A stretch of 64,000 bases of DNA, taken from the sequence record MK373775.1; one strand, given 5' to 3'. Each line of letters starts with the position of its first letter. Position 1 is the stretch's first letter. Positions 24,926-56,357 of this stretch are shown piece by piece. The notes beneath the pieces were generated by a model. That model did not search any database and was not told where the DNA came from. It was given only the letters and a program-made list of their open reading frames with translations. This stretch comes from Escherichia phage vB_EcoM_WFK. The translations under genes and the position numbers were made by a program.

Positions 24926-24999
24926 TTTATTCTCCAGATGTTTAAGTTGTTTGTTGGTACAGGTCTATAATAACATAACCTGTACCAAAGTAAACTGTT

Positions 25000-45486: not shown

Positions 45487-45494
45487 TATAAATA
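45487..45494 (+). promoter_or_regulatory. T4-type late promoter (TATAAATA) upstream of gene 34
   Basis: Exact TATAAATA 35 nt upstream of the gene 34 ATG. Confidence 0.5.
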
Positions 45495-48500: not shown

Positions 48501-49158
48501 ATACCATTTCTATTCTCAGCGCGCTGCTGATAATAAAGTATCATTTAATATTAATGGAACACTTTATTCAACAGGTATTGTTTCTACAAATGGATTAAAT
48601 GTTACAGGTGTTTCTACCTTTACAGGGCCTATTAGTGCTACAGGCGAAATTGTTTCTAGTTCTCCTATTGCATTCAGAGCTATTAATGGTAACTATGGTG
48701 TTATGCTTTATAATGCTGGTAACAGTTCTTATATTGCATTAACTAACTCAGGTGACCAGACCGGGACGTTTAATAACTTACGCCCGATCACGATTAACAA
48801 CGCCACAGGCTTAGTTCGTCTTGACAATGGTGTTCAAATCACGAGTGGTGCAACAATAACTACCGGTGGGTTAACTGTAAATAACAGAATTATTTCTAAC
48901 GGCGTTAAAACCGCCACTGTTTATACCGATAAACCAACAGCTTCTACTGTAGGTTTTTGGTCTATTGACATTAACGATTCTGCTGTATATAGCCAATTCC
49001 CTGGATACTGGACGCGTGATAACAAAGGTAACCGTGACCAAGAAATTAAATATCCTGGTACTTTGACTCAATTCGGCAATAGCTTAGATTCGCTTTATCA
49101 GGATTGGATTTGTTATCCTACAGGTGCAAATGGCGGTAGCATTCGATATACTCGTACC
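45529..49158 (+). CDS. 34: Long tail fibre proximal subunit gp34, 5' portion; the frame then runs into a non-phage insert
   Basis: First 1210 aa are collinear with T4 gp34; after ...GGSIRYTRT the frame enters an adapter sequence and stops at 49179. Confidence 0.9.
49104..49158 (+). repeat. 55-bp direct repeat, copy 1 (left junction of the insert in gene 34)
   Basis: Identical 55-mer TTGGATTTGTTATCC...CGTACC recurs at 49417..49471. Confidence 0.9.
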
Positions 49159-49416
49159 CTGTCTCTTATACACATCTGACGCTGCCGACGACCGATCTAG
49201 TGTAGATCCCGCTGGTCGCCGTATCATTAAAAAAAAAAAAGGGTATGAAGCGGTCACACTAAATATAACTTCGGCTGAAACAGATCATAAGCTGCATACG
49301 ATCGAACGTTGTCACAGAACGTAGTGGTGTACGTAGTATCAAAACTCGAAGCTACCACCACAACAACCTGCGCGACTAGTACACAGAACCACCTGCAAGA
49401 CACGGACGAGCGTAGT
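49159..49416. other. Non-phage insert: Illumina Nextera adapter read-through (Tn5 mosaic end, Read-1 adapter, index-like 8-mer, P5 complement, poly-A) plus about 176 bp of unassigned sequence
   Basis: 49159..49177 is CTGTCTCTTATACACATCT, then GACGCTGCCGACGA, CCGATCTA, a P5 reverse complement with 2 mismatches, and A12; removing 313 bp restores the gp34 frame. Confidence 0.9.
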
Positions 49417-49471
49417 TTGGATTTGTTATCCTACAGGTGCAAATGGCGGTAGCATTCGATATACTCGTACC
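49417..49471 (+). repeat. 55-bp direct repeat, copy 2 (right junction of the insert)
   Basis: Identical to 49104..49158. Confidence 0.9.
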
Positions 49472-49683: not shown

Positions 49684-50808
49684 ATGGAAAAATTTATGGC
49701 AAGGTTTGGACAGGGATACGTCCAAACGCCGTTTTTATCGGAAAGCAATTCAGTTAGATTTAAGCTAAGTATAGCGGGTTCATGCCCGCTTTCAACAACT
49801 AATCCGTATATTTTATTCCAAAATGAGCCTTTAGGGTTGCAGTCTTTTGGTATTGGACTAAATGTTAGGGTGATAAATCCGGAAAATGGAACTATAGTTG
49901 ATAGTAAATTATACAATTTTGCGCCTACAAATAATGCAACTTCAGCTGCATTTATTTCGTTTGTTAATACATACGCAGATAATTTCATTTTCGCATTTAT
50001 TTCCAATAACAAATTTAATTTGCCACCAGAAATAATTGAATGGTTTAAAGCTGCTGGGAGTTCAGTTATACCGTCAATTGAAGTTGCTAGTCTTGTTGAT
50101 ATTTCATATTCAGCGTTTTATGTTTCAGGTAAAAATACTATTGCATTAGAACACATAAAATACAGTAATAAGAAAACAATTTCTGATTACGCAACTCCAT
50201 TAGATATTGTATATGACTCTATTGCTGATATAGGTGCTACCGGCTATCCTAGACGTACATATGAAGCTCTAGAAACGTTTTTATCTCCTGTTGGAGGAAC
50301 TAACAATGAAATAAAAAGGATGCCTACATCATCCCTTGTTACTCCTATCGCAAACTATGGATTAAAGCCTACAGATTTTCTTTATTTGAAATTTCAATTA
50401 ATGGCTGATGAAGCATTACTAGAGGAAGGAACCGCAAGACTTTCAATTCGTTTCTTTAAGACTCCATCTAGCTCTCCTATATCATCTAAAGATATAAACT
50501 TTGATGGAACTGCTGGTGAATGGAAGTTATACGAAGAATATGTTGAAATACCAGCCGAAGCCGATGGCTTTACGGTATATTGTTACCGTACGGCCCCAGT
50601 CGGTCAAGGTGGACTAAGAAATGTTATTTTCACTGAAGTATCATGTAACGGAAGTATAGCAAAACCTGCTGAGTTTGGTATAAACGGTATTCGTGTTAAT
50701 TACATTGATGAATCATTAACCGGTAATGATATAATGGACTTGCCTACTCAGTTATCTAACGACACAGGTAAGGTATTTGGGCAGGAATTTAAAGAGTACA
50801 CAGAATAA
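49684..50808 (+). CDS. 35: Long tail fibre hinge connector gp35
   Basis: 374 aa; size and position as T4 gp35. Confidence 0.9.
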   Translation: MEKFMARFGQGYVQTPFLSESNSVRFKLSIAGSCPLSTTNPYILFQNEPLGLQSFGIGLNVRVINPENGTIVDSKLYNFAPTNNATSAAFISFVNTYADNFIFAFISNNKFNLPPEIIEWFKAAGSSVIPSIEVASLVDISYSAFYVSGKNTIALEHIKYSNKKTISDYATPLDIVYDSIADIGATGYPRRTYEALETFLSPVGGTNNEIKRMPTSSLVTPIANYGLKPTDFLYLKFQLMADEALLEEGTARLSIRFFKTPSSSPISSKDINFDGTAGEWKLYEEYVEIPAEADGFTVYCYRTAPVGQGGLRNVIFTEVSCNGSIAKPAEFGINGIRVNYIDESLTGNDIMDLPTQLSNDTGKVFGQEFKEYTE

Positions 50809-50833: not shown

Positions 50834-50841
50834 TATAAATA
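50834..50841 (+). promoter_or_regulatory. T4-type late promoter (TATAAATA) upstream of gene 36
   Basis: Exact TATAAATA 27 nt upstream of the gene 36 ATG. Confidence 0.5.
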
Positions 50842-51532: not shown

Positions 51533-54500
51533 ATGGCTACTTTAAAACAAATACAATTTAAAAGAAGCAAAACTGCAGGAGCACGTCCTGCCGCTTCAGT
51601 ATTAGCCGAAGGTGAATTGGCTATAAACTTAAAAGACCGTGTACTTTTTACTAAAGATGACCAAGGAAATATTATTGATCTGGGTTTTGCTAAAGGTGGT
51701 AGTATTGACGGGAATGTTATTCATACTGGCAATTATAACCAAACTGGCGATTATACTTTAAATGGCACCTTCACTCAGACAGGTAATTTTAATTTAACCG
51801 GTATTGCTCGAGTAACACGTGATATTATTGCCGCTGGGCAGATTACGACTGAAGGCGGAGAACTTATTACAAAAAGTTCAGGTACAGCACATGTTCGTTT
51901 TCATGATTCGGCTGATCGTGAACGTGGCATTATTTATTCACCGGCTAATGATGGATTAACTACGCAAGTAGTTAATATCCGCGTTAAAGACTACGCCGCT
52001 GGTGATGAAAGCACCTATGCATTTTCGGGCAGTGGACTATTTACTTCACCTGAAGTATCAGCATGGAAATCTATGTCAACTCCTCAGATTTTGACAAATA
52101 GAGTTATTACTAATAATAAATCTACGAGCGATTATGACATTTATTCTATGGCAGACAACGTTCCATTGTCTGAAAGCACTACTGCTATTAATCATCTCCG
52201 TGTTATGCGCAATGCTGTAGGCGCTGGTGTATTCCATGAAGTTAAAGATAATGATGGAATAACTTGGTATACTGGAGATGGCTTAGACACTTATCTTTGG
52301 TCGTTTACCTGGTCCGGTGGATTGAAAGCAGGCCATTCTATTTCTGTTGGTACTCCTGGTGGCAATAAAGGATACTCTGAATTAGGGACTGCTTCAATTT
52401 CTCTTGGTGATAATGATACTGGATTTAAATGGCATCAGGATGGATATTTCCATACAGTAAACAACGGAACAAGAACTTTCATTTACGGTCCTGCGGAAAC
52501 ACAAAGCCTTAGAAAAATGGTTATGGGTTATTCTCCGGATGGTGTTCTTATGACAACGCCACCGACAGAAAACTATGCTTTGGCTACTGTTGTTACTTAC
52601 CATGATAATAATGCATACGGCGATGGTCAAACACTTTTAGGATATTATCAAGGTGGTAATTACCACCACTATTTCCGTGGTAAAGGCACTACAAATATTA
52701 ACACTGCAGGCGGATTGTTAGTTACTCCAGGCAATATTGACGTTATTGGTGGTTCTGTTAATATCGATGGTAGAAATAATTCTTCTACGCTGATGTTTAG
52801 AGGTAACACAACAGGATACAGCTCAGTTGATAATATGGATATTAAAGTTTGGGGTAATACGTTTGTTGATCCAAGCGGAGGTATCCGTAAAAACATTATG
52901 GAAATTTCTGATGCAACTAGCTGGATGAGCTATATTCAAAGACTTACTACTGGCGAAGTAGAAATGAACGTTAATGGTTCATTTGAATCATCTGGTGTTA
53001 CTGCTGGAGATAGAGGAGTTCACACAACAGGTGAAATTTCATCTGGAGCAGTGAATGCTCTTCGTATTTGGAACGCAGATTATGGAGCCATTTTTAGACG
53101 TTCAGAAGGAAGTCTTCATATTATTCCAACTGCTTATGGCGAAGGCAAAGATGGCGATATTGGTCCACTTCGCCCGTTTAGTATGGCTTTAGATACCGGT
53201 AAAGTTACTATTCCAGATTTACAATCAAGTTACAATACGTTTGCTGCTAACGGTTATATTAAATTTGTTGGTCATGGAGCGGGTGCCGGCGGTTATGACA
53301 TTCAATATGCTCAAGCGGCTCCTATTTTCCAGGAAATTGATGATGATGCTGTAAGCAAATATTATCCTATTGTTAAACAGAAGTTTTTAAATGGTAAAGC
53401 TGTTTGGTCTTTAGGTACTGAAATTAGTTCAGGTACATTCGTTATTCATCATCTGAAAGAAGATGGTTCACAAGGCCATACGTCTCGTTTTAATCAAGAC
53501 GGTACTGTTAACTTCCCAGATAACGTTTCTGTCGGCGGCGGTGAAGCTACTATTGCTCGCAATGGTAATATCTGGTCTGATATCTGGAAAACGTTTACTT
53601 CAGCAGGCGACGTAACTAATATTCGCGATGCAATAGCTACTCGTGTTGCTAAAGAAGGTGATACGATGACCGGTAGGTTGACTTTATCTGCTGGAAATGA
53701 TGCCCTTGTTTTAACTGCAGGCACGGGCGCTTCATCGCACATCCGTAGTGATGTAGGTGGTACAAATAATTGGTTTATAGGCAAAGGCGGCGGTGACAAT
53801 AGTATAAGTTTTTACAGTTACATTACACAAGGCGGTGTAAACATAACAAATAACGGCGAAATAGCGCTTTCTCCTCAAGGACAAGGAACATTTAATTTTA
53901 ATAGAGACCGCCTTCATATAAACGGTACACAATGGACCGCACACCAGGCTGGCGATTGGGGAAATCAATGGCGCCAGGAAGCTCCTGTATTTGTGGATTT
54001 TGGTAATGTCGGTAATGATAGTTATTATCCTATTATTAAAGGAAAATCTGGTATTACTAATGAAGGGTATATATCTGGTGTAGATTTTGGTATGCGACGC
54101 ATTCCTAATAACTGGGCACAAGGTATTATTCGTGTAGGTAATCAGGAAAACGGTTCCGACCCACAAGCTATCTTCGAATTCCACCATAATGGAAACATGT
54201 ACGTTCCTGACATGGTTAAAGCTGGAGTAAGAATATCAGCTGGTGGAGGTGACCCTGCATGGACAGGCGCATGTGTTGTTATTGGTGATAATGACACCGG
54301 ATTAGTTCATGGTGGTGACGGCCGAATCAATATGGTTGCCAATGGTATACATATTGCAAACTGGGGAGCAGGCTATCAATCTCATCCTGGGCTTTGGGAT
54401 TCAACCGGTGCTTTTTGGACAGAAGTTGGAAGAGCTATCGTTTCTCATGGGCATCTCGTTCAGGCAAATGATAGTTATTCAACGTTTGTCCGTGATGTTT

Positions 54501-54844
54501 ATGTCCGTTCTGATATTCGTGTTAAAAAAGACCTTGTTAAATTTGAAAATGCTTCTGAGAAGCTTTCAAAAATTAATGGTTACACTTATATGCAGAAGCG
54601 AGGCCTAGATGAAGAAGGTAATCAAAAATGGGAACCTAATGCCGGTTTAATTGCCCAAGAAGTTCAAGCTATTTTACCTGAATTAGTTGAAGGCGATCAG
54701 GATAGTGAAGCTTTACTTCGTTTGAACTATAACGGTGTAATTGGTTTAAATACAGCTGCAATCAATGAGCATACTGCAGAAATTGCAGAACTTAAATCAG
54801 AAATTGAAGAACTTAAAGCATTAGTTAAATCATTGTTAAAATAA
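51533..54844 (+). CDS. 37: Long tail fibre distal subunit gp37 with a C-terminal intramolecular chaperone (Peptidase S74-like) domain
   Basis: 1103 aa; the C-terminal ~110 aa (from SDIRVKKD...) carry the endosialidase-chaperone-type motif pattern (S-D-x-R-x-[17 protein letters not shown]) and a terminal coiled coil. Confidence 0.9.
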
Positions 54845-54848
54845 TAAG

Positions 54849-54864
54849 AGGGGCTTCGGCCCCT
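54849..54864 (+). other. UUCG-tetraloop RNA hairpin between 37 and 38 (no U-run; Shine-Dalgarno sequence immediately downstream)
   Basis: AGGGGC-UUCG-GCCCCU followed by TGGAGG and the gene 38 ATG. Confidence 0.5.
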
Positions 54865-54875
54865 TGGAGGTTTAT

Positions 54876-55670
54876 ATGGCAGTAACAGGACCGTGGGTAG
54901 GATCGTCTGCAGTAGTTAATACAGGACAAAATTGGATGGGCGGCGCGGCCCAACGATTAAGAATGGGTGCTCCATTTTGGATGAGTAATATGATAGGTCG
55001 ATCTGTTGAAGTAATTCACACGCTTGGAGCAGACCATAACTTCAATGGTCAATGGTTCCGAGATAGATGTTTTGAGGCAGGTAGTGCACCTATAGTGTTT
55101 AATATTACTGGAGATTTAGTATCATATTCTAGAGATGTGCCACTTTTCTTTATGTATGGGGATACGCCTAATGAATATGTTGTTCTTAATATTCATGGTG
55201 GTGTTCATATGTGGGGTCGTGGTGGTAATGGTGGATACACTCACTCAGGAGGCGACGGTAACGGTACACAAGGCGGTCATGTTATTCAAAATGATATCGG
55301 TGGACGGCTTCGTATTTGGAACTACGGTGTTATAGCTGCTGGTGGTGGCGGTGGTGGTGGTATTGCATATCGTCCACACTCAGGGGCAAACTGGCAAGAT
55401 ATCGGTGGCGGTGGTGGTCGACCTTTCGGTGGCGCTGGCGGCGGCGGCTATTCTGGCGGTGGAGCTTCTTATGAAGGTCCGGGTGGTGGATATAACTATG
55501 GTAACGCTCACTCTGGGCAGGGTGGCAATGCTGGTGCAGCCGGACAAAACGCGTGGTCTGACGGCGGTAAAGTTCTAAAAGTTGGAGCAGGTGGTGCGTC
55601 TGGTCATGCAGTGTTTGGATCTTCTCCAACTTGGGGTGCTGTTGGAACAATTTACGGACCAAGAGTATAA
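54876..55670 (+). CDS. 38: T2-type receptor-binding adhesin gp38 (glycine-rich motifs with interspersed variable segments)
   Basis: 264 aa from the ATG (the track start is TTG); conserved N-terminal gp37-binding region; C-terminal half has poly-Gly motifs separated by short variable blocks. Confidence 0.85.
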
Positions 55671-55700: not shown

Positions 55701-56357
55701 ATGGCAGCACCTAGAATATCATTTTCGCCCTCTGATATTCTGTTGGGTGTTCTAGATCGCTTGTTCAAAGATAATGCTACCGGGAAAGTTCTTGCTTCCC
55801 GGGTAGCTGTCGTAATTCTTTTGTTTATAATGGCGATTGTTTGGTATAGGGGAGATAGTTTCTTTGAGTACTATAAGCAATCAAAGTATGAAACATACCG
55901 TGAAATTATTGAAAAGGAAAGAAATGCACGCTTTGAATCTGTCGCCCTGGAACAACTCCAGATAGTTCATATATCATCTGAGGCAGACTTTAGTGCGGTG
56001 TATTCTTTCCGCCCTAAAAACTTAAACTATTTTGTTAATATTATAGCATACGAAGGAAAATTACCTTCAACAATAAGTGAAAAATCACTTGGAGGATATC
56101 CTGTTGATAAAACTATGGATGAATATACAGTTCATTTAAATGGACGTCATTATTATTCCAACTCAAAATTTGCTTTTTTACCAACTAAAAAGCCTACTCC
56201 CGAAATAAACTACATGTACAGTTGTCCATATTTTAATTTGGATAATATCTATGCTGGAACAATAACTATGTACTGGTATAGAAATGATCATATAAGTAAT
56301 GACCGCCTTGAATCAATATGTGCTCAGGCGGCCAGAATATTAGGAAGGGCTAAATAA
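55701..56357 (+). CDS. t: Holin T
   Basis: 218 aa, same length as T4 holin; N-terminal transmembrane segment and large periplasmic domain. Confidence 0.93.
   Translation: MAAPRISFSPSDILLGVLDRLFKDNATGKVLASRVAVVILLFIMAIVWYRGDSFFEYYKQSKYETYREIIEKERNARFESVALEQLQIVHISSEADFSAVYSFRPKNLNYFVNIIAYEGKLPSTISEKSLGGYPVDKTMDEYTVHLNGRHYYSNSKFAFLPTKKPTPEINYMYSCPYFNLDNIYAGTITMYWYRNDHISNDRLESICAQAARILGRAK

Follow-up and report, generated by a model that had tools for sequence, protein, structure and literature searches.

Genes 37 and 38 of the Mosigvirus coliphage vB_EcoM_WFK, found within a window of 64,000 nt of sequence record MK373775.1, can be assigned with high confidence to the distal module with which long tail fibres of the T2/S16 type recognise the receptor. 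WFK (MK373775) and its close relative WFL6982 (MK373774) are both Mosigvirus (Korf et al. 2019, PMC6563267). The tail-fibre tip module is of a standard, already well-known type with nothing new in it, so its significance goes little beyond annotation and its value is practical. The two gene products are residue-for-residue identical to QBQ77268.1 (gp37) and QBQ77269.1 (gp38) of the same phage, and the family matches of both are far beyond chance. All features described below lie on the plus strand unless otherwise noted, with coordinates counted along the window.

Gene 38 (54876–55670) encodes a tail-fibre adhesin of 264 amino acids plus the stop codon, as identified by the Pfam families Gp38_N and GP38. 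The true start is ATG 54876, with a GGAGG Shine-Dalgarno sequence 5 nt upstream. The TTG at 54864 given in the ORF list was ruled out by the homologues, all of which start with MAV(T/V/Q)G, by the annotation of WFL6982 and by the GGAGG sequence. Gp38_N matches residues 1–40 (74.9 bits, E 5e-21) and GP38 matches residues 45–264 (226.6 bits, E 4e-67), with a Pfam cut-off of 25 bits for each family. At E 1.8e-107 the protein also matches PHROG 2056, which is labelled "tail fiber protein; host specificity", and it matches two solved adhesins, those of PP01 (PDB 9V85, E 4e-67) and Salmonella phage S16 (6F45_D, E 3e-46). By analogy with these homologues, gp38 would be present in the WFK virion.

The N-terminal attachment domain delimited by Gp38_N (residues 1–40, 54876–54995) carries three docking tryptophans, W7, W20 and W35, which are near-invariant across the adhesin alignment. 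In the S16 structure, three gp38 tryptophans are the prongs inserted in gp37 pockets (PMC6851490). The receptor-binding part (residues 41–264, 54996–55667) was delimited by full-length alignment with the receptor-binding domains of PP01 and S16, and its homology to 6F45_D and 9V85 points to a beta-helix followed by a polyglycine-II (PGII) sandwich. S16 gp38, which is monomeric, has the same architecture of three Trp prongs, beta-helix and polyglycine-II sandwich.

Glycine makes up 70 of the 264 residues of gp38, and 52 of the 132 residues between positions 114 and 245, with runs at 156–162, 177–181, 188–191, 194–196 and 203–205. The original prediction described a conserved N-terminus followed by poly-glycine motifs that frame variable segments, and this description was borne out both by the Gp38_N match and by the column entropy of a nine-adhesin alignment, which is 0.1–0.3 bits in the glycine motifs vs. 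1.05–1.8 bits in the segments between them. The longest motif, G156–G162 (GGGGGGG, 55341–55361), has an entropy of 0.11 bits and corresponds to PGII helix 3 of S16, 151-GGGGGGGG-158 (PMC6851490). The DNA homology with FL31 ends inside this motif, where the megablast/blastn match stops at 55359.

Five distal receptor loops are seen in the S16 and PP01 structures, and by analogy only some of the inter-glycine segments of gp38 would be distal receptor loops. Loop definitions A–E were mapped from PP01 (PMC12892980) through the adhesin alignment, and the boundaries are approximate since the alignment runs through low-complexity glycine sequence. Predicted loop A covers about residues 120–131 (55233–55268; from PP01 W119–I124; 1.05 bits) and predicted loop B about residues 163–176 (55362–55403; from PP01 Q161–V170), the segment of highest entropy in the protein at 1.80 bits. 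Predicted loop C, at about residues 189–193 (GGGYS, 55440–55454), derives from PP01 N184–W189, and predicted loop D, at about residues 206–212 (YNYGNAH, 55491–55511; 1.68 bits), from PP01 N204–Y209. Finally, predicted loop E spans about residues 225–238 (55548–55589; from PP01 N225–S231; 1.47 bits). The suggestion that host range maps to the variable blocks of gp38 agrees with the established model (PMC3157838, PMC6851490, PMC12892980, PMC12032242) and fits the entropy profile. With this mapping, the gp38 loops to be targeted for host-range retargeting are now located.

Aligning gp38 with adhesins of known receptor, as had been proposed, placed it close to the OmpA-assigned group formed by Ox2, FL08 and AV119 ("type 1" of Lutz et al. 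2025). Over residues 41–264, it is 95.5% identical to gp38 of the OmpA-specific phage Ox2 and 86.2% identical to those of FL08 and AV119. Ox2 binds OmpA loops, and the OmpA dependence of FL08 and AV119 is experimental (PMC12032242). Since the receptor-binding part is so close to that of an OmpA phage, OmpA is the probable receptor of WFK. The assignment is probable rather than certain because exchanging only a few hypervariable residues has been reported to alter or broaden receptor use (PMC3157838, PMC12892980). WFK gp38 differs from that of Ox2 at 10 positions, of which N172K, G191R and N207D lie within or beside the predicted loops B, C and D.

It is thus conceivable, but unlikely, that the architecture is as described and the receptor is OmpC, another porin or LPS, as in host-range derivatives of Ox2. 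The ten substitutions, of which three fall within or beside predicted loops, are compatible with such a shift, as is the altered receptor specificity obtained when the hypervariable regions of Ox2 gp38 were mutated (PMC12892980); furthermore, Ox2 is listed as fully infective only when it has more than one receptor (PMC3157838). Against this, the 95.5% identity extends over the whole receptor-binding part, and loop B carries the R-x-HSGA motif of type-1 OmpA binders, which is common to the OmpA-dependent FL08 and AV119 and whose region R165–A170 is predicted to contact OmpA in these two phages (PMC12032242). In addition, the published phylogeny of gp38 is a reliable predictor of the receptor (PMC12032242). 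OmpA as the probable receptor is a proposal that helps in choosing phages for cocktails or engineering.

The resemblance to Ox2, whose gp38 (X05675) is the classical OmpA-specific adhesin, is confined to part of the module. DNA identity to WFK is 97–100% over codons 101–180, whereas residues 1–40 of WFK gp38 are only 57.5% identical to Ox2 and 97.5% identical to FL08 and FL31. The N-terminus of WFK gp38 is of the GPWVGSS type, while those of Ox2, T2 and T6 are of the GVPGWIGSS type, and the chaperone domain of Ox2 gp37 is only about 31% identical to that of WFK. Because the receptor-binding part is Ox2-like while the gp38 N-terminal type and the gp37 chaperone domain differ from Ox2, gene 38 of WFK is, as judged from these alignments, a mosaic of an Ox2-like receptor-binding part and an attachment domain of a different lineage.

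PP01 gp38 (PDB 9V85; PMC12892980) belongs to the same fold family as WFK gp38 and is 94.5% identical to WFK over the beta-helix (residues 41–113), but only 49% identical over residues 114–264, with other loops, and the receptor of PP01 is OmpC of E. coli O157. S16 gp38 shows about 49% identity to WFK gp38 overall and 41.5% over residues 41–264, all loops being different, and S16 uses Salmonella OmpC. Like WFK, T2 has an S74 domain at the gp37 C-terminus and the Gp38_N plus GP38 combination in its adhesin (Pfam), with a gp38 that is 45% identical to that of WFK and a gp37 of 1341 amino acids vs. 1103 amino acids. The receptors of T2 are FadL and OmpF.

Gene 37 (51533–54844), an ORF directly upstream of gene 38, encodes the precursor of the long tail fibre distal subunit, with 1103 amino acids. 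Its full-length product matches PHROG 1699, "long tail fiber protein distal subunit" (E 0). Residues 911–1103 match S16 gp37 (6F45_A, E 1.1e-43), the closest solved relative, and by alignment with the S16 tip in this entry residues 911–992 (54263–54508) make up the distal tip of the mature fibre. This tip is predicted to be the gp38 docking region, a role taken from the S16 structure (PMC6851490).

The last 111 of the 1103 residues, at the extreme C-terminus (residues 993–1103 plus the stop codon, 54509–54844), form a Peptidase S74 intramolecular chaperone domain. Such a domain had been predicted for the last ~110 residues of gp37 together with an S-D-x-R-x-K context, an NYNGVIGL motif and a terminal coiled coil, and each of these elements was recovered in the sequence. 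The Pfam Peptidase_S74 profile (PF13884) matches residues 993–1052 over profile positions 1–57 of 58 (E 1.1e-12, 48.5 bits, against a curated cut-off of 22 bits), with profile position 1 on S993, whose codon starts at nt 54509. The catalytic-type residues are Ser993 and Lys998 (codon 54524–54526), at a spacing of +5, and the motif reads LNYNGVIGL in its extended form. The S, D, R and K residues, the G-x-x-AQ motif and LPE are invariant in the S74 domains of Ox2, T2, T6, AV119 and FL31, and six T-even gp37 proteins all have the Ser together with the Lys at +5. The terminal helix, delimited by its heptad pattern at roughly residues 1069–1103 (54737–54841), shows I/I/I/I/V at positions a and N/H/L/L/L at positions d of the last five heptads, a sequence-level test suggesting that it could form a trimeric coiled coil.

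When the PDB was searched by phmmer, the S74 domain matched 6F45_A (E 5e-34) and the S74-type domain of MYRF (7dc3, E 0.019). The 118-residue C-terminus of gp37 gave no phmmer match to endosialidase or T5 structures in the PDB. Since this search reached only S16 and MYRF, the link between the gp37 domain and the endosialidase and T5 chaperones runs through the Pfam profile, and the likeness of K1F endosialidase and T5 pb1 to gp37 is seen at the profile level only. At that level, the three proteins have in common a C-terminal self-cleaving trimerising domain with a Ser nucleophile, a Lys five residues downstream and a terminal coiled coil, cleavage being predicted in the case of WFK. They differ in the cargo of the chaperone, which in K1F and T5 is either an enzyme or a domain that itself binds the receptor, and in WFK a fibre tip later given a separate adhesin. 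In the K1F endosialidase, the dyad is Ser911/Lys916. The dyad of T5 pb1, Ser1264/Lys1269, has the same spacing as S993/K998 of gp37 (PMC4690869).

The predicted scissile bond, R992|S993 (54506–54511), was located by alignment with the S16 and fPS sites, and a cut at this position would release 111 residues. The gp37 segment DVYVR^SDIRVKK aligns with the published S16 cut, DLNVS^SDRRIKK, while fPS phages have DVYIR^SDGRLKI (PMC7917993). In S16, which like WFK combines a beta-helical gp37 tip with an S74 chaperone and an aligned cleavage site (PDB 6F45; Dunne et al. 2018), the last 113 residues of gp37 are reported to autocleave at S^SD, exposing the gp38 docking surface (PMC7917993). The gp37 proteins of T2 and T6 are also proteolytically cleaved and capped by gp38 (PMC3157838). 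The residue preceding the scissile Ser is Arg in WFK and Ser in S16. On the processing of T2 gp37, PMC3157838 refers to Drexler et al. 1986. Judging from these homologues, gp37 is probably cleaved in WFK too.

Alternatively, the S74-like domain might be a relic that aids trimerisation, is left uncleaved and stays on the fibre, with gp38 binding elsewhere or nowhere. Uncleaved C-terminal auto-chaperones do exist, such as the fin of the P22 tailspike (PMC4690869). This reading is nevertheless very improbable, as WFK retains an intact Ser, Lys at +5 and S-D-x-R-x-K context, all of them invariant in T-even homologues, among these T2, where processing has been reported. Moreover, S16, the closest relative of known structure, undergoes autocleavage at the corresponding bond, and docking of its gp38 needs the surface exposed by cleavage (PMC7917993). 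In a T4-type arrangement, gp38 would act solely in folding and be missing from the virion, and receptor binding would fall to the gp37 C-terminus. Such an arrangement draws only on the gene names and positions 34-35-36-37-38-t and on the 34% identity of gp37 residues 1–640 to T4 gp37, and its probability is practically negligible: gp37 of the window departs from T4 gp37 past about residue 640, T4 gp37 has Collar and Phage_fiber His-x-His repeats at its end and no S74, whereas gp37 of the window matches neither family, and T4 gp38 matches no Pfam family and has no similarity to gp38 of the window (best BLASTP E 3.5), which matches adhesin families. The original prediction of a T2-type rather than T4-type tip therefore held, the Pfam architecture being identical to that of T2.

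The tip would most likely be assembled and work as follows. Genes 36, 37 and 38 would be expressed late in infection, and the C-terminal 111-residue S74 chaperone would align three gp37 chains, with their terminal helices forming a trimeric coiled coil. Once the triple beta-helical tip has folded, Ser993, activated by Lys998, would cut R992–S993 in each chain, and the departing chaperone would uncover the hydrophobic gp37 tip. One gp38 would then dock on this tip through its N-terminal three-helix domain and the prongs W7, W20 and W35, giving a gp37:gp38 stoichiometry of 3:1 by analogy with the homologues. The remainder of gp38 would form the beta-helix and ten or so polyglycine-II helices packed as a sandwich, whose variable turns at the far end (loops A–E) would touch the outer-membrane receptor, most probably OmpA.

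The comparison with WFL6982 gives further information on the same genes. The window corresponds to WFL6982 positions 100591–164279 except for a 2-nt indel, a SNP in gene 37 at nt 53873, a 5-nt block in gene 38 and an adapter insertion. Across the compared 64 kb, the sole coding differences from WFK to WFL6982 are P781T in gp37 and Y192V/S193R in gp38; that is, gp37 has P781 here and T781 in WFL6982, and gp38 has Y192/S193 here and V192/R193 in WFL6982. The sole gp38 difference, which comes from nt 55449–55453 (TATTC here, GTACG in WFL6982), falls at the edge of predicted loop C, next to the position of the Ox2 difference G191R. Both phages come from one sewage sample and were obtained on one and the same host strain. 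It can be speculated, with considerable doubt, that they are a natural near-isogenic pair in which loop C and a gp37 shaft residue tune the recognition of OmpA variants or the host range. This would hold only if the differences are true variants rather than consensus errors. In GenBank, gp37 of both WFK and WFL6982 is labelled "hypothetical protein"; both can be annotated as long tail fibre distal subunits that carry an S74 chaperone domain and for which a cut at R992|S993 is predicted. A sequencing-adapter artefact at 49159–49416 interrupts gene 34 of WFK, a data-quality warning to users of this genome.

The gene order, 34-35-36-37-38-t, is that of T2, T6 and WFL6982. Gene 38 lies directly downstream of the end of gene 37 (54844) and upstream of the holin gene t (55701–56357; Phage_holin_T, E 3e-117). 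An exact match to the T4-type late promoter consensus, TATAAATA, is located at 50834–50841, 27 nt before the start codon of gene 36 (ATG 50868); from what is known of T4, it is likely to be the start of a 36-37-38 late transcript. Between genes 37 and 38, a hairpin with a UUCG loop (54848–54865) is followed by the Shine-Dalgarno sequence GGAGG of gene 38 (54866–54870), the whole element spanning 54848–54870. The predicted fold of the hairpin has an energy of −14.1 kcal/mol, and its z-score is only −1.5. The annotation of WFL6982 gives it as a putative terminator, but a strong terminator was discarded in view of that z-score and the lack of a T-run after the hairpin, and because of the latter a role in stability or processing is more likely. 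Open reading frames that overlap gene 38 in another frame or lie opposite it, such as 55330–55662 (minus strand, 110 amino acids), were taken to be stop-free by-products of GGN-rich coding, a reading that fits the local GC skew of +0.31 at gene 38.

Genes 37 (51533..54844, 1103 aa) and 38 (54876..55670, 264 aa), followed by the holin gene t (55701..56357; Phage_holin_T, E 3e-117), encode the long tail fibre distal subunit and the adhesin, which are identical in sequence to QBQ77268.1 and QBQ77269.1 of vB_EcoM_WFK, respectively. The T2-type receptor-recognition module of the original prediction, 54509-55670, runs from the first base of the gp37 S993 codon to the gene 38 stop. The observation was confirmed and its interpretation supported: this is a tail-fibre tip of the textbook T2/S16 type, with structure and genetics worked out in close relatives. 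Its sequence is already deposited. By megablast, the region is present in 638 phage records, the top one being Escherichia phage vB_EcoM_WFL6982 (MK373774, Mosigvirus) at 99.9%.

The profile search of the gp37 C-terminus matched the Pfam family Peptidase_S74 ("chaperone of endosialidase") at residues 993-1052 (profile positions 1-57 of 58, E 1.1e-12, 48.5 bits, cut-off 22), starting on the very serine proposed for cleavage. Among solved structures, the best match is a gp37 fragment from Salmonella phage S16 (PDB 6F45), with E 1.1e-43 over residues 911-1103 and 5e-34 when only the final 118 are considered; myelin regulatory factor, through its S74-type domain (E 0.019), was the sole further structure match. 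S16 gp37 is reported to cleave off its own last 113 residues once it has trimerised; the cut falls between the two serines in DLNVS^SDRRIKK and uncovers the gp38 docking surface (PMC7917993). This site aligns to DVYVR992^S993DIRVKK, so that cleavage at R992^S993, releasing a fragment of 111 residues, is predicted from the alignment. No variation occurs at the motif's S, D, R and K, or in G-x-x-AQ and LPE, among the gp37 proteins of Ox2, T2, T6, AV119 and FL31. Identity of the chaperone domain to its Ox2, T2 and T6 counterparts is only about 30%, yet the motif residues are unchanged; tip plus chaperone show 95% identity to AV119 and FL31, against about 31% to Ox2. The five-residue spacing from serine to lysine is shared with T5 pb1 (Ser1264/Lys1269), where the mutation Ser1264Ala abolishes cleavage and the chaperone domain terminates in a trimeric coiled coil (PMC4690869). 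In the last five heptads of gp37, position a is I/I/I/I/V and position d is N/H/L/L/L.

Upstream in gp37, residues 453-550 (52889..53182) matched Gp34_trimer (Pfam) and structures of the gp34 C-terminus (4UXE and 5NXH, E about 1e-12). This segment also occurs in T4 and T2 gp37, and its sequence similarity indicates a module common to the proximal and distal half-fibres.

The anatomy of gp38 agreed with the proposed conserved N-terminus followed by glycine motifs framing variable segments. Gp38_N (residues 1-40, E 5e-21) and GP38 (45-264, E 4e-67) were found with Pfam, and the protein falls in PHROG 2056 ("tail fiber protein; host specificity", E 1.8e-107). Two solved adhesins, the receptor-binding domain of PP01 gp38 (9V85, E 4e-67) and S16 gp38 (6F45_D, E 3e-46), matched it from end to end of their own sequences. 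Three tryptophans of S16 gp38 plug into gp37 pockets (PMC6851490), and their counterparts W7, W20 and W35 are nearly invariant in the alignment. Glycine accounts for 70 of the 264 residues and 52 of the 132 in residues 114-245, with runs at 156-162, 177-181, 188-191, 194-196 and 203-205. Among nine distinct adhesins, column entropy was 0.1-0.3 bits in the glycine motifs and 1.05-1.8 bits in the intervening segments, against 0.76 bits in the N-terminal domain and 0.64 bits in the beta-helix part. The same layout of conserved motifs and hypervariable segments has been known in published adhesins since Henning's work, and from Trojet et al. (PMC3157838; PMC12892980). Taking the PP01 receptor loops as reference (A W119-I124, B Q161-V170, C N184-W189, D N204-Y209, E N225-S231), loops A-E are predicted at about residues 120-131, 163-176, 189-193, 206-212 and 225-238, with approximate boundaries because the alignment crosses low-complexity sequence.

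T2 has the same Pfam architecture, with S74 at gp37 residues 1243-1300 and Gp38_N plus GP38 in gp38. In contrast, T4 gp37 ends in Collar and Phage_fiber repeats and lacks an S74 domain, while T4 gp38 had no Pfam family match and no similarity to gp38 here was found by BLASTP (E 3.5). Homology to T4 gp37 is confined to residues 1-640 (34% identity). The module is thus of T2 rather than T4 type, as proposed.

OmpA is the probable receptor, given the identity of gp38 residues 41-264 to the adhesins of Ox2 (95.5%), which binds OmpA loops, and of FL08 and AV119 (86.2%), for which OmpA dependence was shown by experiment (PMC12032242). Identity to adhesins using OmpF, Tsx, OmpC or FadL is at most 70%. 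The loop-B motif R-x-HSGA, shared with the "type 1" group and predicted there to contact OmpA, also argues for this receptor. The assignment stays at probable because of ten substitutions relative to Ox2, with N172K, G191R and N207D within or adjoining predicted loops.

DNA identity of gene 38 to Ox2 rises from 65% at codons 1-40 to 95-100% at codons 61-180, and FL31 homology ends at 55359, the edge of the longest glycine run. Judged by these shifts, gene 38 is a recombinant that pairs an Ox2-like specificity module with a locally matched attachment module, in agreement with the published view that gp38 exchanges take place at conserved motifs (PMC3157838).

WFK and its sister isolate WFL6982 came from one sewage sample and one host strain (PMC6563267 supplements), and the window equals WFL6982 positions 100591-164279 apart from four places. 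One is a 2-nt (CT) indel near 24967 in an inverted-repeat loop, GGTACAGGTCT[CT]ATAATAACATAACCTGTACC. Aside from an insertion in gene 34, the only coding differences in the 64 kb are C53873A in gene 37 (gp37 P781T) and 55449-55453 in gene 38, where gp38 residues 192-193 are YS here and VR in WFL6982 (Y192V/S193R), at the edge of predicted loop C. At both, the window has the relatives' state (YS in Ox2, FL08 and AV119; P in FL31). They may be real receptor-gene microdiversity or consensus errors in one record.

The fourth place is a 258-nt insertion at 49159..49416 in gene 34, absent from WFL6982. It opens with Nextera adapter read-through (CTGTCTCTTATACACATCTGACGCTGCCGACGA), continues with a P5-like stretch, poly-A and some 175 nt of junk, is flanked by a 54-nt duplication (49105-49158 and 49417-49470), and falsely truncates the gp34 ORF at 49179. 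Since it explains nearly all of the 311-nt length gap between the two records, the artefact appears to be part of the deposited WFK genome. In the neighbouring gene 35 (49684..50808), residues 58-131 of the gp35 hinge protein weakly matched ILEI (interleukin-like EMT inducer; Pfam, E 6e-7, 30.3 bits, cut-off 27).

T4-type late promoter consensus sequences were matched at 45487, ahead of gene 34, and at 50834, ahead of gene 36. For gene 38, a TTG start at 54864 from the ORF listing was rejected in favour of ATG 54876, because homologues all open with MAV(T/V/Q)G, WFL6982 annotates the equivalent ATG, and GGAGG lies 5 nt upstream. The double stop of gene 37 (TAATAA) and this Shine-Dalgarno site are separated by a GC-rich hairpin (54848..54865), capped by a UUCG tetraloop, which the WFL6982 record annotates as a terminator; its fold z-score is just −1.5 and no T-run follows it, and it may serve in mRNA stability or processing. 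Owing to its GGN codons, the glycine-rich stretch of gene 38 (55000..55500) has the peak values of GC content (0.47) and GC skew (+0.31), and the same composition accounts for several long spurious ORFs over the gene, in alternative frames as well as on the minus strand.
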